Below are positions 16,038-52,075 of a stretch of 64,000 nt of DNA, piece by piece. Each line of letters opens with the position of its first letter. The first letter of the stretch is position 1. Under the pieces are notes generated by a model, which worked only from the letters and a program-made list of their open reading frames with translations, ran no database searches and had not been told where the DNA came from. The position numbers were made by a program, and so were the translations under genes. Origin of the DNA: Escherichia coli (GTDB taxonomy: Bacteria > Pseudomonadota > Gammaproteobacteria > Enterobacterales > Enterobacteriaceae); assembly GCF_044324785.1 (NCBI RefSeq), contig NZ_CP172127.1; one strand, given 5' to 3'.

Positions 16038-16145
16038 GCGCCAGATAAGACACAACAGCGTCGCATCAGGCATCTCGCACAACCGCCGGATGCGGCGTGA
16101 ATGCCTTATCCGGCGGCCCACAAGTCGGCATCAGGCATTGATGCC
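16038..16145. repeat. REP/BIME cluster between ytfR and ytfQ
   Basis: Multiple GCCGGATGCGGCG.../CGCATCAGGC palindromic units. Confidence 0.55.
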
Positions 16146-25573: not shown

Positions 25574-25672
25574 TGCCGGATGCGACGTAAACGCCTTGCC
25601 AGGCCTACAAAACCCTCCAAATTCAATATATTGCAGGGACTTCGTAGGCCTGATCGGCATAGCGCATCAGGC
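25574..25672. repeat. REP elements between msrA and ytfL
   Basis: GCCGGATGCGACGTAAACGCCTTGCCAGGCCTACA and inverted partner. Confidence 0.5.
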
Positions 25673-25849
25673 AGTTTTTCATTTATCAACAGTCTGAATT
25701 TTAACCCTCTGGCGGCTTTACAGTACCTTACGCTATACTAGCCACTGAAAATGCCGGTTCACTTTCTTCGAATCGGCTTTCAATGTGTATTTCACACAAA
25801 TTAATCAACTTCCCCTTCCGAGGATCTGGCCTGAAAGGTCGGATAAGAT

Positions 25850-27193: not shown

Positions 27194-27209
27194 CCCCCAG
27201 AAACATCAA

Positions 27210-27236
27210 CGGCTCCTGAATCAGGAGCCGTCTTAT
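27210..27236. terminator. Hairpin between convergent ytfL and ytfK
   Basis: CGGCTCCTGA-ATC-AGGAGCCG then TCTTATT. Confidence 0.45.
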
Positions 27237-28429: not shown

Positions 28430-29341
28430 TCATACTGGTAACGCTAGTTGCTTTTTTTTAAACGCCTCAATGGTCGATTTATATTTCTCGCAAATCTTTT
28501 CTTCGGTAATATCACTATCTGCGGCCAGATTCGCACTTACTATCGCATCCACTTGTTCGGCTAATTCGACTTGTTGGCAACCTGCATTAACCAGAAAATT
28601 ATAAATAAGAGAGTAATCTTCATCCTCCAAAACAACAGAGGAACCATTACGAAAACGTTCATCCCCTCCATAGATTTTAAGCGCAAAGCCCAAAGATTCT
28701 ATGACTATGGCAAAATTATCATCAATTATTTTTTCGTAAATATACCATCCATCGCATTCTTTAATTCCACCTCCTGGAATTTGGAGGTCAAATTTACCCC
28801 GTTTTAATTTACTTACTATATCATCCAATACAGCATAACCTAAAGACACGTCACCAAACGCCTGGCGAATATAACCTTTAATCCTTTCCGGTATGTCAGA
28901 CTGTTTTTTCTGCAGAATATCCCAGGCATACAATCTTCTGTTTTGTTCTAACGGAAACTCGCGGTTTTTGAAATCCATGAATGAGTTATACTCATTTATT
29001 GTTATGGGAATTTCTTCGTATTCAAATCCACTGCCTCGCAATGTCATTATATATTCGGCACCGTTATCTTTAAGGCTGAAACTGATAAGAAACTTATCCA
29101 TGGCGTTAACAGTTTCATTTTTTGATGAAAGTACCTGATAACTATTTTTATCAATCTGAGTTGCGCAACGAAAGAACTCCCGCAAAGTTAACAGGCTATC
29201 ATAATTCGAAATCCAATCTTTTTTATTAAATGCATGCTGGATATTGTTAAAAAAATTGTTTGAATGTGTTTTTGTATGCGATGATTTTACGAATAACTCC
29301 ACCGCACCAATAAAATTATTGTGTCTGATCCTGGGTAACAT
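28430..29341 (-). CDS. ytfI: Uncharacterised protein YtfI (AT-rich orphan gene)
   Basis: 303 aa, no recognisable motifs, markedly AT-rich relative to flanks; position between ytfJ and cysQ matches ytfI. Confidence 0.7.
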   Translation of the reverse strand: MLPRIRHNNFIGAVELFVKSSHTKTHSNNFFNNIQHAFNKKDWISNYDSLLTLREFFRCATQIDKNSYQVLSSKNETVNAMDKFLISFSLKDNGAEYIMTLRGSGFEYEEIPITINEYNSFMDFKNREFPLEQNRRLYAWDILQKKQSDIPERIKGYIRQAFGDVSLGYAVLDDIVSKLKRGKFDLQIPGGGIKECDGWYIYEKIIDDNFAIVIESLGFALKIYGGDERFRNGSSVVLEDEDYSLIYNFLVNAGCQQVELAEQVDAIVSANLAADSDITEEKICEKYKSTIEAFKKKQLALPV

Positions 29342-29552
29342 ATGGCTACCTTATTTTATTTGGTTATTTTATGTCGCCATTAAATATCTCATTATAGAAG
29401 TAAACTATCAAAAAACGCTCATTATTAAAATGTAACTTATTAGCAATTGAATTTTTGCACTTTAAATACAATCTCTTTTTATTTATAACTTTTTAGGTTG
29501 GGAGAAATCAGGATGGCAGATTCAGGAAATACACTGTTTCTGCCATCTGAAT

Positions 29553-30293
29553 TTAGTAAATAGACACTCTGAATCCCGGATTCAGGAACGACTCGCGCGG
29601 AGTGTAATCCAGCGGTTTACCCTGCCAGTCGTGAACGTGCGCTCCGGCAGCTGCAGCCACAGCATGACCAGCGGCGGTATCCCAAATATTCGTTGGTCCG
29701 AAGCGCGGGTACAGCTGCGCCTGCCCTTCCGCCACCAGGCAGAATTTCAGCGAAGAGCCGATGGACGTGGTCTGATGTTCGCCAAGCTGTTGCAGATACT
29801 CTTTCAGCTCCGCATCTGCATGGGAACGGCTAATAACGACCAATGGCGGGCGCGCATCGCGGACCTGAATCTGCTTGCGCACGCCGCACTCTTCTTTCCA
29901 CGCTTTGCCTTCTGCCGCGCTGTACATTACGTTCATTACCGGCGCATACACCACGCCTAAAATCGGTTTTCCATGGTCAATGAGCGCAATGTTAACGGTG
30001 AATTCGCCATTACGTTTAATAAACTCTTTAGTACCATCCAGTGGGTCTACCAGCCAGTAACGCTGCCAGTGCTGACGGACTTCCCAACCGGGAGGATCTT
30101 CTTCAGAAAGCACCGGAATATCCGGTGTCAGCGTACGTAAACCGTCCATGATAACGGTGTGTGCGGCAATATCCGCTGCCGTTACCGGAGAATTGTCCGC
30201 TTTGCTGACGACGTCCATCGGTTTCGTCCCGTCGTAGACCTGCATAATGGCATCGCCTGCATTCCGTGCAAGCTGGCATACTTGATCTAACAT
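29553..30293 (-). CDS. cysQ: 3'(2'),5'-bisphosphate nucleotidase
   Basis: 246 aa inositol-monophosphatase fold ([17 protein letters not shown]). Confidence 0.92.
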
Positions 30294-30482
30294 TTCTCCA
30301 CCTCGTCTCTGTGAGCGGTGTTAACTTATTGTTTTACTTATACCCTATCGTTAATGAATGCGCCAACTGTGATAGTGTCATCATTTTCAAAGCGTAAAAT
30401 TGTGGCATTCTTCACTGTTCTATAAGTAAGACGTTTATTCTCCCTTTTCTTTCGTATTCCCGATGATAAAAGGATGTCCCTG

Positions 30483-33990: not shown

Positions 33991-34956
33991 ATGATTAGCG
34001 GCGTGCTGTACGCCCTGTTAGCAGGGTTGATGTGGGGGCTTATTTTTGTCGGGCCGTTGATCGTGCCGGAATACCCGGCGATGTTGCAGTCTATGGGGCG
34101 TTATCTGGCGTTAGGGTTAATTGCGCTGCCCATTGCCTGGCTGGGACGCGTGCGTCTGCGTCAGTTGGCGCGTCGCGACTGGCTTACCGCCTTGATGCTC
34201 ACCATGATGGGCAACCTCATCTATTACTTCTGCCTTGCCAGTGCCATTCAACGTACTGGCGCGCCTGTTTCCACGATGATTATTGGCACCCTGCCGGTGG
34301 TGATACCTGTCTTTGCCAATCTGCTTTATAGCCAGCGCGACGGCAAACTCGCGTGGGGAAAACTCGCCCCGGCGCTGGTTTGTATTGGCATCGGCCTGGC
34401 GAGTGTGAATATTGCTGAGTTAAACCACGGACTCCCCGATTTTGACTGGGCACGTTATACCTCTGGCATCGTGCTGGCGTTAGTTTCCGTGGTCTGCTGG
34501 GCGTGGTATGCCCTGCGCAACGCCCGCTGGCTGCGGGAAAATCCCGACAAACATCCAATGATGTGGGCAACAGCGCAGGCGCTGGTCACGCTGCCGGTTT
34601 CTCTCATCGGCTATCTCGTCGCCTGTTACTGGCTGAATATACAAACGCCGGACTTCTCCTTACCTTTTGGCCCCCGTCCGCTGGTGTTTATTAGTCTGAT
34701 GGTTGCGATAGCCGTGCTTTGCTCATGGGTTGGCGCACTCTGCTGGAACGTCGCCAGCCAGCGATTACCGACAGTGATTCTCGGGCCGCTGATTGTTTTC
34801 GAAACGCTGGCAGGTTTGCTGTACACCTTTTTACTCCGCCAGCAAATGCCGCCGCTAATGACGCTGAGCGGTATCGCGCTGTTAGTGATTGGCGTGGTCA
34901 TCGCGGTCAGAGCAAAACCAGAAAAACCTTTAACTGAATCTGTCTCAGAAAGTTGA
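33991..34956 (+). CDS. ytfF: EamA/DMT-family inner membrane protein
   Basis: About 321 aa, 10 predicted TM helices; start ambiguous (ATG at 33982 or 33991). Confidence 0.8.
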   Translation: MISGVLYALLAGLMWGLIFVGPLIVPEYPAMLQSMGRYLALGLIALPIAWLGRVRLRQLARRDWLTALMLTMMGNLIYYFCLASAIQRTGAPVSTMIIGTLPVVIPVFANLLYSQRDGKLAWGKLAPALVCIGIGLASVNIAELNHGLPDFDWARYTSGIVLALVSVVCWAWYALRNARWLRENPDKHPMMWATAQALVTLPVSLIGYLVACYWLNIQTPDFSLPFGPRPLVFISLMVAIAVLCSWVGALCWNVASQRLPTVILGPLIVFETLAGLLYTFLLRQQMPPLMTLSGIALLVIGVVIAVRAKPEKPLTESVSES

Positions 34957-35024
34957 CACGCTGGCAGTGAGTTAAATAAGCCTCTGCTACGTAAGGGTTA
35001 TAGCATTTGCCTTAAAGATGCATT

Positions 35025-35047
35025 TAAAATGCACCTTATATTATTAA
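35025..35047. promoter_or_regulatory. Candidate NsrR operator upstream of ytfE
   Basis: AAGATGCATTTAAAATGCACCTT, an AT-rich inverted repeat about 17 bp upstream of the ytfE start, resembling the NsrR consensus as remembered. Confidence 0.5.
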
Positions 35048-35063
35048 GAATGAGGTATCAGCT

Positions 35064-35726
35064 ATGGCTTATCGCGACCAACCTTTAGGTGAACTGGCGC
35101 TCTCTATTCCTCGCGCTTCGGCTCTGTTTCGTAAATATGATATGGATTACTGCTGCGGCGGTAAGCAGACGCTGGCGCGCGCGGCGGCACGTAAGGAGCT
35201 GGATGTTGACGTCATTGAAGCCGAACTGGCAAAGCTTGCTGAACAACCGATTGAGAAAGACTGGCGTAGCGCCCCGCTGGCTGAAATCATCGACCATATC
35301 ATCGTGCGCTACCACGATCGCCACCGCGAGCAGCTGCCGGAGCTGATCCTGCAAGCGACTAAAGTCGAGCGCGTTCACGCCGACAAACCGAGCGTGCCAA
35401 AAGGGCTGACAAAATACCTGACTATGCTGCATGAAGAGCTTTCCAGCCACATGATGAAAGAAGAGCAGATCCTCTTCCCGATGATCAAACAAGGCATGGG
35501 TAGCCAGGCGATGGGGCCAATCAGCGTAATGGAAAGCGAGCACGATGAAGCGGGCGAACTGCTGGAAGTGATCAAACACACTACCAATAACGTCACACCG
35601 CCGCCAGAAGCCTGCACCACCTGGAAAGCGATGTATAACGGCATTAATGAACTGATTGATGACCTGATGGATCACATCAGTCTGGAAAACAATGTGCTGT
35701 TCCCACGCGCGCTGGCGGGTGAGTGA
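35064..35726 (+). CDS. ytfE: Iron-sulfur cluster repair di-iron protein (RIC)
   Basis: 220 aa, ScdA N-domain plus hemerythrin-like His/Glu ligands. Confidence 0.92.
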
Positions 35727-38112: not shown

Positions 38113-38329
38113 CGTATTTCCTTTCTTAGGGTATAAAGTAGCGGGCAGCATATCAGCCACACTTCTTTGGGTAAAACTTTGTCGCGGGAATGATGACAAA
38201 TCACGGGGAAAAAGAAACAATAGCAATATCCCGTATGAATATAATAAAGGCGGGTTTACCACGGACATCATAGCGTTAGCTTATTCATAGGCTATGATTG
38301 AGGAACAAGACGCGGAGCAGGAGGAAACC

Positions 38330-38968
38330 ATGCCCGGGCGCTTTGAACTAAAACCAACCCTGGAGAAAGTCTGGCACGCGCCGGACAATTTTCGCTTCAT
38401 GGACCCGCTGCCGCCGATGCATCGTCGGGGGATCATTATTGCCGCCATTGTATTGGTGGTCGGATTTCTGCTTCCATCTGATGATACGCCCAACGCGCCG
38501 GTGGTGACGCGTGAAGCGCAGTTAGATATTCAGTCGCAATCACAACCGCCGACAGAAGAACAGCTGCGGGCGCAATTAGTCACCCCACAAAATGATCCTG
38601 ATCAGGTGGCTCCGGTCGCTCCAGAACCTATACAGGAAGGCCAGCCAGAAGAGCAGCCGCAAACCACCCAAACGCAACCATTCCAGCCAGATAGCGGAAT
38701 TGATAATCAATGGCGCTCTTACCGTGTCGAACCCGGTAAAACGATGGCGCAGCTGTTCCGCGACCACGGACTGCCCGCTACCGATGTCTATGCAATGGCG
38801 CAGGTAGAAGGCGCGGGTAAGCCGCTGAGTAATTTGCAAAACGGGCAGATGGTGAAAATCCGCCAGAACGCCAGCGGCGTGGTGACGGGCTTAACCATTG
38901 ATACGGGGAATAATCAACAGGTCCTGTTTACCCGCCAGCCGGATGGCAGTTTTATTCGTGCGCGGTAG
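38330..38968 (+). CDS. ytfB: OapA/LysM-like cell-division-associated protein
   Basis: 212 aa from internal ATG ([23 protein letters not shown]...), membrane anchor, Pro/Gln-rich linker. Confidence 0.8.
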
Positions 38969-39599
38969 ATGAAGGATCAACCAAAAGCCAGCTAAGGAGC
39001 GTCTCTTTGATGACCTTACGTCTGGCTTCCAGTGCCTGGGGGGAAACCATACTGATATGATAAACTAGGCCAAGCGTATGCTGGTTGATCAAATAATATC
39101 CCCCAAGCGCAGCAATATTAATATTCACCTGCAATGGGTCGATATCTGGCTTAAAAATATTGTGTTTCTTCCCTTCATCCAATAAGGATTCCATTAACTG
39201 CAAGTGCGCATGGTTAATTTCTAAGAGACGCTGTGATTTTGCATAATGCACACCTTTACTTTGATTTTCACTATGCACAATTTTTAAAAACCAGGGGTTA
39301 GCAATATAATAATCCCATGTAAAATCAATAATTTTCTCAATGGCTTTTTGTGGCGGAAGATCTGAGAAATCAAGGGCCTTTTCTTTTTGTCGAATATCGT
39401 TCCAGGTATATTCCAGTACTTCAATAAATAAATTTTCTTTATTACCAAAGTGATGATAAACCGTCTGTTTACTACACCCCGCAGCCTTAACAATATTATC
39501 GACCCTGGCCCCTTCATAACCATATTCGGCAAATTCATTAACCGCGCATAACAGCAGCTTTTCCTTCAGGCTCTGTACGTTGCTGGTATCAAGATACAT
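38952..39599 (-). CDS. TetR/AcrR-family transcriptional regulator, divergent from the accessory operon (possibly the intact form of K-12 ytfA)
   Basis: 215 aa from ATG at 39599; N-terminal HTH ([23 protein letters not shown]); 3' end overlaps ytfB by about 17 nt. Confidence 0.8.
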
Positions 39600-39721
39600 A
39601 ACGCTTCCCCACGACCTCTTCAAGACAACTATCTTAACCCGATTAATTAGAAGCTCCAGTAAAAAGGATAAAAACTTGTACTTTCATCAAGTTATCAAAT
39701 GTCCTGTGATCACTATCGCAT

Positions 39722-39743
39722 ATCAACCAACCAGATGGTTGAT
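39722..39743. promoter_or_regulatory. Perfect inverted repeat ATCAACCA-N6-TGGTTGAT in divergent promoter region; candidate operator of the TetR regulator
   Basis: Verified against ORF-track translation of this region; a second repeat CTTGCG-N6-CGCAAG lies at about 39748-39765. Confidence 0.4.
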
Positions 39744-39809
39744 CTTTCTTGCGGCACGTCGCAAGCTAATTGTCACTTAGAAACAATATTCAAAAAAGAG
39801 AGCTATTGT

Positions 39810-40601
39810 ATGAAATCCACTCGTCCTGTTGCCGTGATTACCGGAGCCGCTCGTGGTATTGGAAAGGGCTGTGCGCTGGAGCTTGCTCGTGGCGGATTTA
39901 ACCTGCTGATTAACGATCGCCCCGATGATGACAGCGTAGAAAAATTACATGCCACGCAACAGGAATGTCTGGCAGAAGGTGTGGAAGTGATTTGCTTCCC
40001 TGCCGATGTCGGCGATCTCTCCTTGCATGAAGAGATGCTCGACGCGGCACAAAACCAGTGGGGACGTCTGGACTGCCTGCTCAACAACGCAGGCATTTCA
40101 GTGAAAAAACGCGGTGACCTTCTCGACCTCGAACCAGACAGCTTCGACCAAAATATTGCCATTAACACCCGCGCACCGTTCTTCCTCGCTCAGGCATTCA
40201 GTAAGCGCTTACTGGCACAGCCGAAACCGGAAGCAGAACTGCCGCACCGCTCGATTATTTTTGTCAGTTCCATCAACGCCATCATGCTGGCGATGAATCG
40301 CGGCGAATATACCATTGCCAAAACTGCCGTCTCTGCCGCTGCTCGTCTGTTTGCTGCTCGGCTTTGTAATGAACAAATTGGCGTTTATGAAGTGCGTCCT
40401 GGTCTCATCAAAACCGATATGACTATTCCGGCAACGGCCTATTACGACGAACTGATTGCCAAAGGTCTGGTGCCGTGGGGACGTTGGGGTTATCCGGCTG
40501 ATATTGCTTCCACTGTCCGCGCGATGGCGGAAGGTAAACTGATTTACACCTGTGGTCAGGCGGTTGCCATTGACGGCGGCTTAAGTATGCCGCGTTTCTG
40601 A
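39810..40601 (+). CDS. Short-chain dehydrogenase/reductase (classical SDR, FabG-like)
   Basis: 263 aa; TGAARGIGKG cofactor motif, NNAG, catalytic Y-x3-K (YTIAK); RBS AAAGAGAG upstream. Confidence 0.8.
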   Translation: MKSTRPVAVITGAARGIGKGCALELARGGFNLLINDRPDDDSVEKLHATQQECLAEGVEVICFPADVGDLSLHEEMLDAAQNQWGRLDCLLNNAGISVKKRGDLLDLEPDSFDQNIAINTRAPFFLAQAFSKRLLAQPKPEAELPHRSIIFVSSINAIMLAMNRGEYTIAKTAVSAAARLFAARLCNEQIGVYEVRPGLIKTDMTIPATAYYDELIAKGLVPWGRWGYPADIASTVRAMAEGKLIYTCGQAVAIDGGLSMPRF

Positions 40602-40610
40602 GGCTGAATC

Positions 40611-41453
40611 ATGAGAGATCTGTTACAACGCCCGGATTTATTCAGTATCAATACCGCGACACTGGGCTATAAAACGCCGCTTCCCGCCATTATTGATGCC
40701 TGCGCCGCACGCGGTATTGGCGCAATTGCCCCCTGGCGCAGGGAGTTGCAGGGTGAAGATCTCCAGCAAATCGCCCGCCAGCTTGCCGCCAGTAAGATGA
40801 ACGTTTCCGGTTTGTGCCGTAGCACTTACTACACCGCGCCGACACTGGCGGAACGCAAACTGGCGATTGATGATAACCGCCGGGCGCTGGACGACGCAGC
40901 GGTGCTTAACGCCGCCTGTTATATGCAGGTGGTTGGCGGGTTACCGCAGGGAACAAAAGATTTGTACGAAGCGCGGGAACAAGTAAAACAAGGGATTCGC
41001 CAGTTGCTGCCACATTCGAAAGATGTCGGCGTGCCAATTGCGCTGGAGCCGCTGCACCCGATGACTGCTGCCGACCGCTCTTGCCTGTGCACGTTACGTC
41101 AGGCGCTGGACTGGTGTGATGAACTCGATCCCGATGGTGAGTTTGGCCTCGGCGTAGCGGTAGATGTCTACCATGTCTGGTGGGACCCGGATCTCGCCAG
41201 CCAACTCCAGCGCGCCGGAAAACGCATCCTCGCGTTTCATGTTTCCGACTGGTTAGTACCAACCACCGATCTGGTCAATGACCGTGGAATGCCGGGAGAT
41301 GGCGTCATCAATATTCCGTCAATTCGTCGGCTGGTTGAAAACGCCGGATTTAATGGCGCTATTGAACTGGAAATATTCTCGCCGTACTGGTGGCAAAAAG
41401 ATATTAACAGCACGCTGGATATTAGCGTCGATCGCATCGCGCATTATTGCTAA
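40611..41453 (+). CDS. Xylose-isomerase-like TIM-barrel enzyme (sugar-phosphate isomerase/epimerase or dehydratase superfamily)
   Basis: 280 aa; conserved metal-ligand-like positions (LEPLHP, HVSDW, ELEIFS); starts 9 nt after SDR stop. Confidence 0.75.
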   Translation: MRDLLQRPDLFSINTATLGYKTPLPAIIDACAARGIGAIAPWRRELQGEDLQQIARQLAASKMNVSGLCRSTYYTAPTLAERKLAIDDNRRALDDAAVLNAACYMQVVGGLPQGTKDLYEAREQVKQGIRQLLPHSKDVGVPIALEPLHPMTAADRSCLCTLRQALDWCDELDPDGEFGLGVAVDVYHVWWDPDLASQLQRAGKRILAFHVSDWLVPTTDLVNDRGMPGDGVINIPSIRRLVENAGFNGAIELEIFSPYWWQKDINSTLDISVDRIAHYC

Positions 41454-41462
41454 GGAATGATT

Positions 41463-42239
41463 ATGAGTGACCAACCCGTTCTGTTCAGCAGAGCGGCGGC
41501 TTCCTGCCGTCTGACATTGAACCGTGAAGATAAATGTCATGCTATTAATGAAGAGATGATTGAATCTCTCGATCATTATTTAAATGAAATTGAAAACGAC
41601 ACCACATTACGATTAGTCGAATTAACGGCAACCGGCGATAAATTCTTTTGTGCGGGCGGCGATATTAAATCGTGGTCAGCCTATTCGCCATTAGATATGG
41701 GCAGAAAATGGATTAAACGCGGTAATGACGTTTTTAATCGCCTGCGCAACTTACCCCAATTAACCGTTGCAAATCTCAACGGTCATACCATCGGCGGTGG
41801 TATTGAACTTGCTTTGTGCTGCGATATTCGTATTGCCCGTCCCGGCGCGAAATTCTCTAACCCGGAAGTGATGCTCGGCATGGTGCCTGGCTGGATGGGC
41901 ATTGAACGTGTGCTTAATCAGGTCGGTCCGGTGGTCGGTCGCCAGATGCTGATGCTGGGTAAACGCCTGACGGCGCGGGAAGCTCAGGCGGCGAATTTAA
42001 TTGATGAAGTGGTAGAAAAAGAACAGGTGGAAAGCTGGATGGCGAACCAGTTAGCGCAGCTGGAAAAATGTGGTCCGGTGGCGCTCGCACATATCAAGCA
42101 ACTGATTCTGGCACTGGAAAATAAACATGCCGATTACCCGCACCAGCTACTGGCTGGATTAATGTCCGCCACTCAGGATTGCCAGCAGGCGACGCGCGCG
42201 TTTGCCGAAAAAAGTAGCGTGAGCTTCCACAATCAATAA
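41463..42239 (+). CDS. Enoyl-CoA hydratase/isomerase (crotonase fold)
   Basis: 258 aa; oxyanion-hole segments FCAGGDIKSW and NGHTIGGGIELALCCDIRIA; start taken at second ATG, 6 nt after AAGGA. Confidence 0.8.
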   Translation: MSDQPVLFSRAAASCRLTLNREDKCHAINEEMIESLDHYLNEIENDTTLRLVELTATGDKFFCAGGDIKSWSAYSPLDMGRKWIKRGNDVFNRLRNLPQLTVANLNGHTIGGGIELALCCDIRIARPGAKFSNPEVMLGMVPGWMGIERVLNQVGPVVGRQMLMLGKRLTAREAQAANLIDEVVEKEQVESWMANQLAQLEKCGPVALAHIKQLILALENKHADYPHQLLAGLMSATQDCQQATRAFAEKSSVSFHNQ

Positions 42240-42248
42240 GGAAATTGT

Positions 42249-43790
42249 ATGCGTAAGATAACAACCGCCGAGGCACTGGCGGCGCAAATTCAGGACGGCG
42301 CAACCATTGCCATTAGCGGTAACGGCGGCGGCATGGTGGAAGCTGACCATATTATGGCCGCCATTGAAGCGCGTTTCCTGCAAACCGGACACCCTCGCGA
42401 TCTGACATTGATCCACTCGCTGGGTATTGGCGATCGCGACAGCAAAGGCACTAACCGTTTTGCTCACGCCGAAATGCTCAAACGCATTATTGCCGGACAT
42501 TTTACCTGGTCGCCCAAGATGCAGGAACTGGTGAAAAGCAATGCTATTGAAGCCTACTGTTTCCCTGGTGGCGTGATTCAGGCGTTGCTACGGGAGATCG
42601 GTGCCGGACGTCCGGGGCTTTTTACCCACGTTGGGCTGGGATCGTTTGTTGATCCACGCAATGGCGGCGGTAAGTCGAATGAATGCACTACCGACGACCT
42701 GGTAGAACTGATTGAAATCGACGGTGAGACCAAACTTCGTTATCGCCCTTTCAAAGTGGATTACGCGATTTTGCGTGGCACTTATGCCGATCCACGAGGC
42801 AACGTTAGCCTCGAAGAAGAAGCGATTGATATGGATAGCTATTCGATGGCGCTGGCAGCACACAACAGCGGTGGCAAAGTGTTCGTACAGGTACGCGATG
42901 TGCTGGAAGCAGGTGCCATTGAACCACGCCGGGTTAAATTACCGGGGATTCTGGTTGATGGCATCGTTGAACACCGCGAACAGCCACAAACCTATCTTGG
43001 CAGTTACGACCTGACCATCAGCGGCCAACATCGCCGTCTGAGTTCTAACGACGCTATTGAGCTGGTTAGTCATCCGGTGCGTCGCCTGATTGCCCGTCGG
43101 GCAGCGCGGGAACTGGTGGCAGGCGCTTCAACCAACTTTGGCTTTGGTATTCCCGGCGGCATTCCAGGAGTAGCGCTGCGCGAAGGCGTGCCTTACCAAA
43201 GTTTATGGCTGAGCGTCGAGCAAGGCGTGCATAACGGTATGATGCTGGATGATGCGTTTTTCGGCTGCGCCCGCAACGCCGATGCCATTATTCCATCACT
43301 CGATCAATTTGAGTTCTACAGTGGTGGAGGGATCGATATCACCTTCCTCGGCATGGGAGAGATGGATCAGTACGGTAACGTCAACGTATCCCATCTCAAT
43401 GGCAATCTGATTGGCCCCGGCGGATTTCTCGAAATTGCGCAAAATGCCCGTAAAGTGGTGTTCTGCGGCACGTTCGACGCTAAAGGCAGCAAAATCGATA
43501 TAACGCCAGATGGCTTGCATATCGCCCAGTCAGGTCAAATCCCTAAACTGGTTACCCAGGTGGAAAAAATCACTTTTAGCGCCGCCTACGCACAGCAAAG
43601 TGGTCAGGAAGTGTTGTATATCACTGAGCGCGCAGTATTCCAGTTAACGGCAGAAGGCGTTGAATTAATTGAAATCGCGCCGGGTGTAGAGATTGAGCGC
43701 GACATTCTGCCGTTCATGGCTTTCCGTCCAATTATCAAGCACCCACGCCTGATGGAAAGTAGCCTGTTTACGCCGATGGAGGATGCATGA
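42249..43790 (+). CDS. Family-I CoA-transferase, fused alpha/beta subunits (YdiF / propionate-CoA-transferase-like)
   Basis: 513 aa; N-terminal ISGNGGG and later SGGGIDITFLGMGEMDQYGNVNVS segments typical of 3-oxoacid CoA-transferases. Confidence 0.75.
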   Translation: MRKITTAEALAAQIQDGATIAISGNGGGMVEADHIMAAIEARFLQTGHPRDLTLIHSLGIGDRDSKGTNRFAHAEMLKRIIAGHFTWSPKMQELVKSNAIEAYCFPGGVIQALLREIGAGRPGLFTHVGLGSFVDPRNGGGKSNECTTDDLVELIEIDGETKLRYRPFKVDYAILRGTYADPRGNVSLEEEAIDMDSYSMALAAHNSGGKVFVQVRDVLEAGAIEPRRVKLPGILVDGIVEHREQPQTYLGSYDLTISGQHRRLSSNDAIELVSHPVRRLIARRAARELVAGASTNFGFGIPGGIPGVALREGVPYQSLWLSVEQGVHNGMMLDDAFFGCARNADAIIPSLDQFEFYSGGGIDITFLGMGEMDQYGNVNVSHLNGNLIGPGGFLEIAQNARKVVFCGTFDAKGSKIDITPDGLHIAQSGQIPKLVTQVEKITFSAAYAQQSGQEVLYITERAVFQLTAEGVELIEIAPGVEIERDILPFMAFRPIIKHPRLMESSLFTPMEDA

Positions 43791-45859
43791 GTCAGCTTGA
43801 TGACACCATCCTTGATGCGCTGACGCACGTCACTTTCCCAAAGGGGTTTGTGTCAGCAGAGCCAACGTCAATTGTCACCGTTGAGGATGTTGATTACCCG
43901 ATCTGGCAAGTTGATGCGCTGGTCGTTGGTAGCGGCGCAGCAGGATTACGTGCGGCAGTTGAACTTAAACGCCGCCAGCAAAATGTGCTGATCGCCACCG
44001 CCGGGTTATATATGGGGACGTCGGCATGTTCTGGTTCCGATAAACAGACGTTGTTTACCGCCGCTACCGCGGGCAACGGCGACAACTTCGCCAAACTGGC
44101 AGAGGCACTTGCGAGCGGTGGGGCGATGGATCACGACACCGCTTATGTCGAAGCGGTAGGTTCTCTGCACACTCTTGGCGGGTTGCAATATCTTGGTCTG
44201 GAATTACCGGAAGATCGCTATGGCGCGATTCTTCGTTATCAAACCGACCATGACGAAGCCGGGCGTGCAACCTCGTGTGGGCCGCGTACCTCAAGGTTAA
44301 TGGTGAAAGTGCTGCTGGAAGAAGTACAGCGTCTTGCTATCCCAATGTTGACCAGTGCAACAGTGATTAAACTGCTGCATCAGCGTGACGAAAACGGCGA
44401 AGACCGCGTGGCGGGGGCTATCCTCGCGACCGGTCATCGCGCCCATAACCCATGGGGGCTGGCAATTGTGATTGCGCCCAATGTGGTACTGGCAACAGGA
44501 GGGCCTGGCGAGCTTTATCGCGACAGTGTGTACCCACACAAATGTTTCGGCTCGCTGGGTCTGGCGCTGGAGGAAGGTCTGACGCTAACGAATCTGACTG
44601 AAAGCCAGTTTGGTATAGGCACACCGCGCAGCACGTTTCCGTGGAATTTGTCCGGGACTTATGTACAGGTGATCCCATATATCTATTCCGTGGATGCTGA
44701 GGGTAACGAGTATAACTTCCTCGCGGATTACTATCGCACCACCCAGGAGCTGGCTTCAAACATTTTCCGTAAAGGCTATCAGTGGCCGTTCCACGCCACT
44801 CGGGTGATGGATTTTGGCTCCAGCTTGTTAGATATGGCAGTAGCGCAAGAGCAGCAATCAGGGCGTCAGGTATTTATGGATTTCAATCGCAATCCTGAAG
44901 CGGTGCCGGGTGACCTGCCCTTCTCATTAGATCGACTGGACGACGACGTTCGCGCGTATCTGGAAAATAACGACGCTCTGGCACCATCGCCCATCGAACG
45001 GCTGCAACGAATGAATCCGCTGTCTATCTCGCTGTATAAGATGCACGGTTACGATCTCACCACACAGCCATTGCAGTTTGCCATGAATAATCAGCATATG
45101 AATGGCGGCATTGAAGTCGATATCTGGGGACAAACATCTCTACCCGGTTGTTTTGCAGTGGGGGAAGTTGCTGGCACACACGGCGTCACCCGACCTGGCG
45201 GCGCGGCATTGAATGCCGGGCAGGTTTTTGCTGTTCGTCTGGCACGTTTTATTGGTTGCACGCAAAAGCGGAATATTGATGGAGATATAGCACAGCTGGC
45301 AGCTCCGGCACTGGCTTCTATAAGAGAGATCATTACTCAGGCGCACGATAACGGGACCGGGATGCCGTTGTCGGTTGTGAGAGAAAAAATTCAGGCACGA
45401 ATGTCTGACCATGCGGGATTTATTTGTCATGCCGATAAAGTCCGACGCGCCACTCGTGATGCCCTGCTATTGAACGAATTTGTCCAACGGCATGGATTGG
45501 CAATCAAACATGTGGGTGAAGTTTCCGAGCTGTTTATGTGGCGGCATATGGCGCTGACTTCTGCCGCGGTATTAACACAATTAACGCATTATATTGATGC
45601 TGGTGGCGGCAGTCGTGGGGCGCGGATGGTTATTGATCCACAAGGCAAATGCCTACCACAAACTCGTCGCGGCGTAAAAGAAGAATGGCGTTTTCGCTCT
45701 GAACTCGCTGAAGATAAAAATCACAAATTAACAATTCAATATTCGCAAGGTTCTTTTATTACCGAAGTAAAGTCTTTACGTATGCAACCGTGTATTAACG
45801 GTATTTACTTTGAAAAAAACTGGCCAGACTTTTTAAAGGGAGACATTTACACACAATAA
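43787..45859 (+). CDS. FAD-binding oxidoreductase of the fumarate-reductase/succinate-dehydrogenase flavoprotein superfamily
   Basis: 690 aa; dinucleotide fold VVGSGAAGLRAA, later GEVAGTHGVTRPGGAALNAGQVFAVRLARF; ATGA overlap with upstream gene. Confidence 0.75.
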   Translation: MSQLDDTILDALTHVTFPKGFVSAEPTSIVTVEDVDYPIWQVDALVVGSGAAGLRAAVELKRRQQNVLIATAGLYMGTSACSGSDKQTLFTAATAGNGDNFAKLAEALASGGAMDHDTAYVEAVGSLHTLGGLQYLGLELPEDRYGAILRYQTDHDEAGRATSCGPRTSRLMVKVLLEEVQRLAIPMLTSATVIKLLHQRDENGEDRVAGAILATGHRAHNPWGLAIVIAPNVVLATGGPGELYRDSVYPHKCFGSLGLALEEGLTLTNLTESQFGIGTPRSTFPWNLSGTYVQVIPYIYSVDAEGNEYNFLADYYRTTQELASNIFRKGYQWPFHATRVMDFGSSLLDMAVAQEQQSGRQVFMDFNRNPEAVPGDLPFSLDRLDDDVRAYLENNDALAPSPIERLQRMNPLSISLYKMHGYDLTTQPLQFAMNNQHMNGGIEVDIWGQTSLPGCFAVGEVAGTHGVTRPGGAALNAGQVFAVRLARFIGCTQKRNIDGDIAQLAAPALASIREIITQAHDNGTGMPLSVVREKIQARMSDHAGFICHADKVRRATRDALLLNEFVQRHGLAIKHVGEVSELFMWRHMALTSAAVLTQLTHYIDAGGGSRGARMVIDPQGKCLPQTRRGVKEEWRFRSELAEDKNHKLTIQYSQGSFITEVKSLRMQPCINGIYFEKNWPDFLKGDIYTQ

Positions 45860-45951
45860 TTTTCAATATTTCCTCTGTACCTGATTTTTATTGCCTATTA
45901 CATGGAAATACCAACAACCAGGGTTTATTAATATAATTAAAAGGTTTAAAA

Positions 45952-47229
45952 ATGAATAAAATAAAGAATTATCGATGGCATATGATTGCCCTCGTATGCT
46001 TTATCACTGTAATCAATTATCTGGACAGAACGGCGTTAGGTATTGCGGCTCCAACGATTATGGAGACAACCGGAATAACTAAAGAGCAATATTCATGGAT
46101 TGTCAGTGCATTCCAGTTGGCCTATACATTAGGGCAACCGGTAATGGGCTTCTTTATTGATACCGTGGGTCTGAAGTTAAGTTTTGCGATATGTGCCGCA
46201 ATTTGGGGCCTGGCGACAATGGGCCATGCACTAACCGGAACGTGGTCTGGTCTGGCATTTATGCGCGCCCTGATGGGTTTCAGCGAAGCGTCGGCAATTC
46301 CGGCGGGTGTAAAAACCGCATCAACATGGTTCCCGGCAAAAGAGCGTGGCGTGGCGACAGGTGTTTTCAATATGGGCACCTCACTCGGCGCGATGCTTGC
46401 TCCACCGTTGATTGCCTGGTGCATTATGTTTCATAGCTGGCAATTTGCGTTTATTGTTTCAGGTAGCCTTGCTTTGCTCGCGGCTTTATTTTGGTTCTTT
46501 TGTTATAAAGATCCGAAAGATGCCAAACGCCTTTCTGATGAAGAGCGCCACTATATTGAATCAGGGCAAGAACAGCATCTTAAAACAGATAAGAAAGAAA
46601 AAACGTCAATCAAGCATATCCTCAGCCAACGTAATTTCTGGGGGATTGGCATCGCGCGTTTTCTCGCAGACCCGGCATGGGGAACCATTAACTTCTGGGT
46701 GCCGATTTTCTTCGTCGAAACGCTGCATTTTAGCCTGAAAGAAATTGCCATGTTCGTCTGGCTGCCTTTCCTGCTGGGCGATCTCGGCTGTTTAGCCAGT
46801 GGTTTTGTCGCGAAGTTCTTCCACGATCGCGGCGTGAGTTTAATTAACTCACGAAGAATTACCTTCACTATTGCAGCCGTCATTATGATGACGATTGGCC
46901 TGGTGAGTATTGTCGAAAATCCCTACATTGCCGTATTACTGATTAGTATTGGCGCGTTCTCGCATCAATGTCTTTCTACTGTAGCAGCAACTCTGGGTGG
47001 CGATCTGTTCAAAAAAGACGAAGTAGCTACCGCAGTGGGTATGGCAGGAGCCTGTGCGTGGAGCGGTCAGTTGATTTTCAACCTGTTCATCGGGGCATTC
47101 GTTCACATTATCGGCTTCGCGCCGTTCTTTATTGCCCTGGCTTTCTTTGACATTATTGGTGCTATTGCGTTGTGGACGCTTATCAAAGTTAAAGATGAAG
47201 AACCGCAAGTACAGCTAGCTACCCATTAA
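45952..47229 (+). CDS. MFS transporter, anion:cation symporter (ACS) family, ExuT/DgoT-like
   Basis: 425 aa; N-terminus NYRWHMIALVCFITVINYLDRTALGIAAPTIME and FPAKERG loop resemble hexuronate/aldonate transporters. Confidence 0.85.
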   Translation: MNKIKNYRWHMIALVCFITVINYLDRTALGIAAPTIMETTGITKEQYSWIVSAFQLAYTLGQPVMGFFIDTVGLKLSFAICAAIWGLATMGHALTGTWSGLAFMRALMGFSEASAIPAGVKTASTWFPAKERGVATGVFNMGTSLGAMLAPPLIAWCIMFHSWQFAFIVSGSLALLAALFWFFCYKDPKDAKRLSDEERHYIESGQEQHLKTDKKEKTSIKHILSQRNFWGIGIARFLADPAWGTINFWVPIFFVETLHFSLKEIAMFVWLPFLLGDLGCLASGFVAKFFHDRGVSLINSRRITFTIAAVIMMTIGLVSIVENPYIAVLLISIGAFSHQCLSTVAATLGGDLFKKDEVATAVGMAGACAWSGQLIFNLFIGAFVHIIGFAPFFIALAFFDIIGAIALWTLIKVKDEEPQVQLATH

Positions 47230-47242
47230 TTATTTTAAATAA

Positions 47243-47272
47243 AAACGCTATAATTGAGGTTATGGCGTTTTT
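47243..47272 (+). terminator. Probable rho-independent terminator after the MFS transporter gene
   Basis: AAACGCTATAA...TTATGGCGTTT stem (one G-U pair) followed by T-run. Confidence 0.4.
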
Positions 47273-47499
47273 AAAGAAGCTTGAGTTATCGAACCTCGCT
47301 TACCAACGCGTTGTCAATCATATCCCCCCTCCCTGCTGCATCGTTATATCCACAATGAGCGATTTTTGATATTAATATCTTTCACCATCCGCTATTTTCA
47401 CTACTTCAGAAAACAAACTTATTTTTATTAATATCGATTCTTTATTCTGTAAACATTCAGCTGAGATATTTATAAAAACATTAAACAGGCAACGATACA

Positions 47500-48294
47500 A
47501 TGACATTACCAACCACTATTTATTCATTTCCTGCATATTCACCCCGTTTTTCGTCCACCGACAAACCAGTAAAATTAAAATTTCATCAATACGCACGCGC
47601 TACATTACTTTCAAATCGTGGAAGAGATCATAATTGCGATGGCAGACATACTGTTGAGATCCACAAACTAGATCTCTCAGACTGGCAAGCATTCAATAAA
47701 CTAGCGATGGCGTGTAATGCTTACGATGGAATAACAATGAATGGTGATAATTCTTTTGGATGGAACCATGAAGCTACATTAGATAATATTCACGCCCAGA
47801 AATACAATAAAGCTTACGCGGGTGCGAGGTTAACCGCAGAACTGAAATATTTATTGCAAGATGTCGAATCCTTCGAACCCAACAGTAAATACACAATACA
47901 CGAGGTTGTTTTGGGTCCAGGTTATGGTACTCCAGACTATACCGGCCAAACGATAGGATACGTTGTAACCCTTCCTGCCCAAATGCCTAATTGCTGGTCA
48001 TCTGAACTACCAACAATCGATCTTTATATCGACCAACTTCGCACTGTTACAGGCGTTTCTAATGCCCTCGGATTCATCATTGCTGCATTGCTAAACGCGT
48101 ATTCTGATTTACCCCATGATTTGAAAATTGGTCTGCGTTCCTTATCAAGTTCAGCAGCAATCTACTCGGGTTTGGGTTTCGAGCGAGTGCCGCAGGGCCG
48201 AGACATAAGGTGCGATCATATGCATCTAACGCCAGCAAACCATCCTGAATTATGGACACAAGAGAATGGTGAATGGATCTACTTGCGAAACTAA
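47500..48294 (+). CDS. yjfZ: Uncharacterised DUF2686-like protein YjfZ (AT-rich gene)
   Basis: 264 aa, no motifs recognised, preceded by 270-bp AT-rich spacer; position next to rplI matches yjfZ. Confidence 0.7.
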   Translation: MTLPTTIYSFPAYSPRFSSTDKPVKLKFHQYARATLLSNRGRDHNCDGRHTVEIHKLDLSDWQAFNKLAMACNAYDGITMNGDNSFGWNHEATLDNIHAQKYNKAYAGARLTAELKYLLQDVESFEPNSKYTIHEVVLGPGYGTPDYTGQTIGYVVTLPAQMPNCWSSELPTIDLYIDQLRTVTGVSNALGFIIAALLNAYSDLPHDLKIGLRSLSSSAAIYSGLGFERVPQGRDIRCDHMHLTPANHPELWTQENGEWIYLRN

Positions 48295-48317
48295 TACCTG
48301 ACGAAAAATAGAAAGCA

Positions 48318-48345
48318 AAACGCCGACCACTGGTCGGCGTTTTTA
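48318..48345. terminator. Bidirectional terminator between yjfZ and rplI
   Basis: ACGCCGACC-ACTG-GTCGGCGT followed by TTTT. Confidence 0.55.
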
Positions 48346-48364
48346 CGTCTCGTTGAATAACGAA

Positions 48365-48826
<462 letters not shown>

Positions 48827-48855
48827 TCAAAGTCGTATTAATGGACCGTGACCGA

Positions 48856-49402
<547 letters not shown>

Positions 49403-49408
49403 CAGAAA

Positions 49409-49822
<414 letters not shown>

Positions 49823-50130
49823 TTATTCAGCCTCCTGTCTGGGTCAGCCGAATCCCGGGGAGGCAAGGAACGTGTTAAAGGTCGGCTGAAAAATGACGCG
49901 TTATAGTACTGACATACCCCGCTAAACTCAAGGCCAGCCGACAAATAAATCTCATCTTTCACCAAATCGTACTAACACACTGATTTGAAGTTCATCACAC
50001 ATCATCATGGTGTTTTTTTGAACAACTGCATCAGAAATGGTCACCATCAACTTCTTTATCATTGATTAAAATTAAATCAGAAGATCATCACAAAGGAGAG
50101 CACACAAAGTCAGCCGTCGAGGAGGTATCT

Positions 50131-50406
50131 ATGTTCAGTCGTGTTTTAGCCCTTCTGGCTGTGCTTTTGCTAAGTGCAAATACATGGGCAGCCATTGAAA
50201 TTAATAACCACCAGGCCAGAAATATGGACGATGTGCAAAGCTTAGGCGTGATTTATATCAACCATAACTTCGCCACTGAAAGTGAAGCACGTCAGGCATT
50301 AAATGAAGAGACAGATGCGCAGGGCGCAACGTACTACCACGTGATTCTGATGCGGGAACCGGGGAGTAACGGCAATATGCACGCCAGCGCGGATATTTAT
50401 CGCTAG
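50131..50406 (+). CDS. yjfY: Small periplasmic DUF1471 (YdgH/BhsA/McbA-family) protein
   Basis: 91 aa from internal ATG after GAGGAG RBS; signal peptide; C-terminal Y-x-hydrophobic...IYR motif. Confidence 0.8.
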   Translation: MFSRVLALLAVLLLSANTWAAIEINNHQARNMDDVQSLGVIYINHNFATESEARQALNEETDAQGATYYHVILMREPGSNGNMHASADIYR

Positions 50407-51221: not shown

Positions 51222-52075
51222 TATGCCGCCTCCACCATGCCAGCTTTGGCCATGCGCGCTTTCACCCAATCACGCGCTTTCGCCACTTCCGCCGCCGGGT
51301 CTTCCGCCGTTTCGCTCCACATCTCAATCAGGTACGGCCCGCAATAGCCACTCTGTTTGAGCGTTTCGAAGCAACGTTCGAAATCCACTACGCCTTCGCC
51401 AAACGGCACATTTTTGAAGACGCCTGGTTTGGTGTCTTTCACATGCACCGCGACGATATGCCCAATTCCGGCCTGCAATTCCATCTGCACGTCGTTGTCC
51501 CACGCCGACAGGTTGCCGATATCCGGATAGAGCTGGAACCACGGGTTGTTGAGATAGTGCGCATAGCCCAGCGCCTTGCTGATGGAGTTCATCAATGGAT
51601 AATCCATGATCTCCATTGCCAGCGTCACCTGCGCGCGGCTTGCCATCTCAACGCTCTCTTTCAGGCCGTCACGGAAACGACGACGCGTTTCGTTATTGGC
51701 TTCCTGATAGTAAACGTCATAGCCCGCCAGTTGGATCACGCGAATGCCAACGTCCTGGGCGAACTGGATAGCTTTACGCATAATCTCCAGCCCCTGCGCC
51801 CGCACCGCGTCATCTTCGCTACCCAGCGGGAAACGACGATGAGCAGAAAGGCACATAGACGGTACACGCACGCCGGTTTCAACAATCGCATTCACCAGCG
51901 CCAGACGCTGCTCGCGGCTCCAGTCGAGGCGCGACAGGCGATCGTCAGTTTCATCTACCGACATCTCGACAAAATCGAAGCCTAACGTTTTTGCCAGTTG
52001 CAGCCGTTCCAGCCAGCACTCCCCGGCGGGGAGCGCTTTTTCATAGATGCCAAGCGGGATTTGTTTGGACAACAT
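51221..52075 (-). CDS. ulaE: L-ribulose-5-phosphate 3-epimerase
   Basis: 284 aa xylose-isomerase-like TIM barrel. Confidence 0.9.

Follow-up and report, generated by a model that had tools for sequence, protein, structure and literature searches.

The 23-mer AAGATGCATTTAAAATGCACCTT at positions 35015-35037 of the window (the whole 64-kb stretch of Escherichia coli DNA that was analysed) is very probably an NsrR operator in the promoter of ytfE, an assignment made from sequence in which the binding of NsrR and the derepression by NO are taken from other strains. NsrR is an Rrf2-family Fe-S repressor, and NO abolishes its DNA binding. An exact sequence search of the 64 kb found the 23-mer only once. 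The preliminary description had thus quoted a real, single-copy sequence, but its coordinates, 35025-35047, were wrong, the true position lying 10 nt to the left; the span 35025-35047 contains only the right half-site plus ATATTATTAA.

The site consists of two 11-bp arms around a single base, AAGATGCATTT-A-AAATGCACCTT, in an 11-1-11 inverted repeat whose stem is AT-rich and complementary at 10 of the 11 positions; the preliminary description had likewise seen an AT-rich inverted repeat. Its left half-site, AAGATGCATTT (35015-35025, + strand), is the 11-bp NsrR motif that scores highest among the ytfE entries in the ChIP-seq table of strain CFT073 (PMC5320621). The right half-site (35027-35037, − strand) reads AAGGTGCATTT on its own strand and includes a rare G, the complement of the + strand C at 35034, position 20 of the site (C20). 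As a bare inverted repeat, the site is only moderately unusual, since four 11-1-11 repeats with at least 10 of 11 matches were found in the window versus 0.7 expected from Markov-1 simulations. The three other repeats (27209-27231, 48319-48341, and 52015-52037) are GC-rich, two of them being perfect (ACGGCTCCTGAATCAGGAGCCGT and AACGCCGACCACTGGTCGGCGTT) and one matching at 10/11 positions (AGCACTCCCCGGCGGGGAGCGCT); these probably represent terminator stems or the like, unrelated to NsrR.

As a match to the NsrR motif, the operator is far beyond chance. Twenty-five published NsrR sites of E. coli CFT073 (Table 4, PMC5320621) served to train a symmetric weight matrix, from which the ytfE site and one duplicate were excluded. 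In a scan of the kind proposed in the preliminary description, the site scored 29.8 bits and was the sole strong match in the 64 kb, the second-best position reaching 13.4 bits. This score lies above the maximum of the training sites themselves (26.3 bits; leave-one-out range 9.2 to 25.7), and none of approximately 3,000,000 positions of Markov-1 random sequence attained it, the random maximum being 19.8 bits. The site also shows the architecture of E. coli-type NsrR operators, with two 11-bp AANATGCATTT motifs in inverted orientation, separated by a 1-bp spacer and complementary at 10 of 11 positions. Only one of the 20 specified bases of AANATGCATTT-N-AAATGCATNTT (also written AANATGCATTTNAAATGCATNTT) is mismatched, and likewise one of the 14 specified bases of gATGyAT-N5-ATrCATc, the motif predicted upstream of dnrN/ytfE by Rodionov et al. 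(2005) (PMC1274295). The resemblance to the NsrR consensus, noted in the preliminary description, is thus borne out by mismatch count, by matrix score, and by orthology to the published ytfE sites.

The second and third matches to the matrix, at 29216-29238 (13.4 bits) and 29452-29474 (12.2 bits), are intergenic and lie upstream of a 246-aa ORF (29553-30293, − strand). Such scores are comparable to those of the weakest published sites and far under that of the ytfE site, and both matches have most likely arisen by chance in AT-rich DNA.

The gene downstream of the operator, a 220-aa ORF at 35064-35726 on the + strand, encodes the di-iron protein YtfE (RIC), as indicated by its match to NCBIfam NF008221, "iron-sulfur cluster repair protein YtfE" (417 bits, cut-off 254); it also matches TIGR03652 (269 bits), and the matching E. 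coli loci carry the RefSeq annotation ytfE. The end of the operator is separated from the ATG by 26 nt, which agrees with the location "immediately upstream of ytfE" given earlier, and the half-site centres are 44 and 32 nt before the ATG, fitting the values of 45 and 33 given for CFT073. A Shine-Dalgarno sequence, GAGG, was read directly at 35053-35056 (+ strand).

The gene order ytfH, qorB, ytfF, ytfE, cycA, fklB is that of the E. coli chromosomal locus. Among the 5,426 complete E. coli genomes, 5,414 contain the greater part of a 1.2-kb query from the ytfE region, the best match being 98.5% identical; three matches in complete assemblies sit on plasmid-labelled records. Across ytfF-cycA, the DNA shares approximately 98% identity with E. 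coli strains N3 and K-12, compared to 93% with the E. albertii representative, and yet the YtfE proteins of the window and of the latter are 100% identical. On the strength of the DNA identities, E. albertii was rejected as the source, and the window was assigned to an E. coli-lineage genome outside the complete-genome collection. The 107-nt ytfF-ytfE intergenic region has a perfect match only in strain N3. A tblastn search of the 64-kb window, with an NsrR sequence as the query, found no NsrR-like ORF; by synteny with K-12, nsrR should be located several kb past the 3' end of the window.

Between ytfF and ytfE, the window hardly differs from K-12 MG1655, with which the site aligns base for base. 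The K-12 operator, AAGATGCATTTAAAATACATCTT, agrees with that of the window in locus, 23-bp register, distance of 26 nt to the ATG, and left half-site, and 21 of 23 bases are identical. The two differences are confined to the right half, where position 17 (35031) is G in the window and A in K-12, and position 20 (35034) is C instead of T; G17 restores the symmetry of one pair whereas C20 breaks that of another, and the K-12 allele is itself only 10/11 symmetric. Beyond the operator, K-12 has C where the window has A at 35040, so that the hexamer TATCTT of K-12 reads TATATT in the window. The CFT073 ytfE site, AAGATGCATTTAAAATGCATCTT, occupies an equal position relative to the start codon and is identical to the window at 22 of 23 bases, but it is a perfect palindrome, whereas the window has C at position 20. 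That site lies under an NsrR ChIP-seq peak with its summit 50 nt before the ytfE start, ranks first by PatSer among 27 palindromic NsrR sites, and belongs to a gene that was 69.6-fold induced in nitrate-grown CFT073 cells (PMC5320621). With one base of difference and matching offsets, the operator of the window is orthologous to a site occupied by NsrR in vivo. In addition, the left half-site of the published ygbA NsrR site (AAGGTGCATTTATATTACAACTT) is AAGGTGCATTT, identical to the right half-site of the window on the − strand, but the ygbA site belongs to another gene and has another partner half-site.

A more distant likeness is provided by the complex of Streptomyces coelicolor NsrR with hmpA1 DNA (PDB 7B0C; PMC9338935), in which a dimer of this Rrf2-family Fe-S protein also occupies a 23-bp pseudo-palindromic operator whose central base pairs receive no base-specific contacts. 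Its specificity is nevertheless different, as the S. coelicolor protein has no significant affinity for E. coli-type sites (PMC9338935).

Regulation of ytfE by NsrR, summarised in PMC9268430, is documented in several strains, and few NsrR targets are repressed as strongly as this gene. According to a communication from Spiro, the inverted repeat takes part in the NsrR repression of ytfE (PMC1274295). The gene is 544-fold upregulated in a Salmonella nsrR mutant (PMC2884951), and in Yersinia it is induced more than 100-fold by acidified nitrite and constitutively expressed in an nsrR deletion (PMC6759291). These reports, together with NsrR repression in E. coli, uphold the earlier description of ytfE as a nitrosative-stress gene. 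In EHEC, the ytfE promoter was used as an NO reporter in a PytfE-tnpR strain (PMC7336997). Altogether, the NsrR evidence covers the alleles of K-12, CFT073, EDL933, Salmonella, and Yersinia (PMC5320621, PMC2884951, PMC7336997, PMC6759291).

The NsrR operator of ytfE is therefore already known: its prediction dates from 2005, and genetic, ChIP-chip, and ChIP-seq evidence confirmed it later. The ytfE promoter with this operator is among the most NO-responsive in enterobacteria and serves as an NO reporter. Confirming the operator here adds no new biology; apart from the 10-nt slip in coordinates, a known operator was recognised from its sequence, and only the rare natural allele, at a motif position that tolerates change, is a new detail.

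The conservation of the site was analysed at 80 ytfE loci retrieved by a protein-based scan of other Enterobacteriaceae species, one genome per species, from Escherichia, Enterobacter, Citrobacter, Klebsiella, Kluyvera, Kosakonia, Lelliottia, Trabulsiella, Buttiauxella, Raoultella, Cedecea, and other genera, and in an alignment of 81 sequences. At all 80 loci, the best matrix match of the entire 2-3.7-kb locus was the site upstream of ytfE (24.8-30.9 bits), and it ended 24-27 nt before the ATG. The operator is the best-conserved part of the ytfF-ytfE intergenic region: the mean majority fraction was 0.945 over the columns of the site (entropy 0.20 bits), compared to 0.644 in the upstream flank (entropy 1.28 bits), 0.858 between the site and the ATG, and 0.864 over the first 30 coding bases of ytfE. 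Near the start codon, the GAGGTA of the ribosome-binding region was invariant or nearly so.

Within the operator, positions 1, 2, 5, 6, 8, and 9 and their mirror positions were invariant in the 81 sequences, and variation was limited to positions 3, 4, 7, and 10 and their mirrors, where the published half-site matrix carries little information. Among the 99 departures from the consensus, 95 were one-sided and four were double. Such mostly one-sided changes fit two protein half-sites evolving independently rather than a base-paired hairpin.

The alignment also bears on the position of the promoter. A candidate −10 hexamer, TAAAAT, is embedded at the centre of the operator (35025-35030, + strand), with a 5/6 match to TATAAT; all 81 sequences have TAAAAT, TAATAT, or TATAAT there, with the A at position 2 and the T at position 6 unchanged throughout. 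An alternative candidate, TATATT (35037-35042, + strand), which also matches TATAAT at 5/6 positions, abuts the right end of the operator and was found as TATATT in 67 of the 81 sequences and as TATAAT in six. The central base of the operator, at 35026, was A in all 81 ytfE sites, compared to 10 A, 6 C, 5 G, and 4 T in 25 other published NsrR sites. A spacer base that is fixed here though variable at other NsrR sites points to an extra constraint, for which the simplest explanation is a −10 hexamer embedded in the operator with this A as its second base. The sequence TTATATTATT, just 3' of the operator (35037-35045), was strongly conserved as well. The conserved central A and TTATATTATT together suggest that promoter elements (TAAAAT and/or TATATT) overlie or abut the operator. 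The abstract of Bodenmiller and Spiro (2006) is said to report that the inverted repeat overlaps the −10 element. A simple, strict consensus scan found no sigma-70 promoter in 34800-35200, and a relaxed hexamer search found no good −35 sequence for either candidate −10.

The best-supported reading of how ytfE may be repressed is occlusion of RNA polymerase, given that the operator overlies or adjoins the candidate −10 hexamers. A dimer of holo-NsrR, an Rrf2-family protein with its Fe-S cluster in place, would occupy both 11-bp half-sites, and the bound repressor would bar RNA polymerase from the promoter. Nitrosylation of the cluster by NO would then release NsrR from the DNA and allow ytfE to be transcribed.

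A further conserved block, AAAGGGkTATAkC, was observed at 34987-35004, 11-28 nt upstream of the operator. It was kept in nearly all of the 81 sequences, and the 8-9 nt that separate it from the operator varied freely. The AGGGGTA found in this block in many species fits the NarL/NarP heptamer AKRRGTA, and the corresponding AGGGTTA of E. coli matches it at 6/7 positions. The block was also considered as a hairpin (CCyC-N4-GrGG) and rejected, RNAalifold returning no consensus structure and covariation not exceeding that of shuffled controls. Its role may be that of a second control element or of a promoter component.

Could the palindrome be something other than an NsrR operator? Rrf2-family operators have in common a two-fold symmetric, AT-rich architecture (PMC9338935), and ytfE was reported to be derepressed in fnr and fur mutants (PMC9268430), so that another Rrf2 protein such as IscR, or else FNR, Fur, or NarL/NarP, might be imagined to bind the palindrome in place of NsrR. 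We consider this very improbable. The best matches to these regulators in the ytfF-ytfE intergenic region were poor, with 10/25 mismatches for the type 1 IscR site, 4/10 for FNR, 9/19 for Fur, and 4/14 for the NarL 7-2-7 arrangement, and none of them fell on the palindrome itself. An IscR operator (ATASYYGACTRWWWYAGTCRRSTAT or AxxxCCxxAxxxxxxxTAxGGxxxT) was likewise rejected for the type 2 consensus, whose best match had 3/9 mismatches and lay off the palindrome. Moreover, the ytfE promoter is described in a review as having no recognised Fur or FNR site (PMC9268430), and the NsrR matrix score is extreme.

The repeat might instead act as an RNA or DNA hairpin, for example as a terminator of ytfF or as a structure in the 5' leader of ytfE, given that the 23-mer is located 58 nt past the ytfF stop codon and folds at −5.0 kcal/mol (z = −4.4 versus mononucleotide shuffles). 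Such a role is hardly credible, as the stem is AT-rich and weak and is not followed by a T-run, a simple scan of 34800-35200 found no terminator-like site, and a gathering-threshold scan with Rfam gave no match in the ytfF-ytfE intergenic region. In addition, pairing has not been preserved by compensation, as shown by the predominance of one-sided over double changes among the 81 sequences, and the invariant positions of the operator are the high-information positions of the NsrR motif. Nor is there any real likelihood that the site is a palindrome arisen by chance, devoid of a regulatory role. Short palindromes are indeed encountered in promoter regions, which are rich in A and T, but this explanation is refuted by the scores of random sequence, none of which equalled that of the operator, and by the conservation of the site, found at a fixed distance from the ATG in 80/80 orthologous loci and more strictly kept than the start of the coding sequence.

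With the palindrome attributed to NsrR, the effect of the rare allele has to be weighed. Its frequency was determined with 30-base probes, for which a near-exact match was required, in the 5,426 complete E. coli genomes: the K-12 operator allele was present in 4,168, the CFT073 allele in 959, and that of the window in only four. This rarity, the symmetric pair broken by C20, and the A at 35040 (C in K-12), which gives TATATT instead of TATCTT, could be taken to mean that C20, G17, and the better hexamer at 35037-35042 measurably alter repression and make ytfE leakier or differently tuned in this lineage, in the manner of a natural regulatory polymorphism as opposed to a neutral variant. We regard this as improbable, if less so than the attribution of the palindrome to another regulator. 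The matrix score is nearly unchanged, at 29.8 bits for the window versus 30.3 for K-12 and 31.0 for CFT073. The base concerned corresponds to position 4 of the half-site, which carries 0.5 bits and is occupied by 20 A, 9 G, 21 T, and no C in 50 published half-sites, so that the G of the window's right half-site has precedents in nine of them. The position pair of C20 is also the least constrained of the operator, with its symmetry kept in just 57 of the 81 sequences, and C occurs at position 20 in the ytfE sites of 8 of the 80 other species, one of which has the identical 23-mer. The K-12 operator, too, is imperfect by one pair. We infer from these comparisons that the C20 allele is functional. 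A large effect on the strength of repression is unlikely, and some change in NsrR affinity is conceivable, one symmetric pair being lost and the allele being very rare.

Two further readings are more speculative and doubtful as they stand. In the first, C20 together with the stronger TATATT would re-tune the NO threshold or the basal level of ytfE in this lineage; in the second, the operator would be dual-coded, with the −10 hexamer TAAAAT at its centre. The block at 34987-35004 might likewise give the ytfE promoter a second control element, one so far undescribed. Dual coding of the operator would account for the spacer A being kept in 81/81 species.

Elsewhere in the window, an accessory gene cluster was observed at approximately 38950-47230, between ytfB and yjfZ, which is absent from K-12 at that position. 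The cluster comprises a divergent TetR/AcrR regulator, a 3-ketoacyl-ACP reductase, a sugar phosphate isomerase/epimerase, and an enoyl-CoA hydratase, followed by an acyl-CoA:acetate/3-ketoacid CoA transferase, an FAD-dependent oxidoreductase, and an MFS transporter. A 12-kb query containing it (38200-50200) was covered over at least 80% of its length in 1,654 of the 5,426 complete E. coli genomes. Five RNA elements in the window scored above the Rfam gathering score, namely naRNA4 (CssrE; 16039-16115, − strand), ES036 (CssrF; 25609-25651, + strand), STnc450 (25731-25788, + strand), the ES239 sRNA (30360-30482, − strand), and the RpsF leader (49802-49886, − strand).
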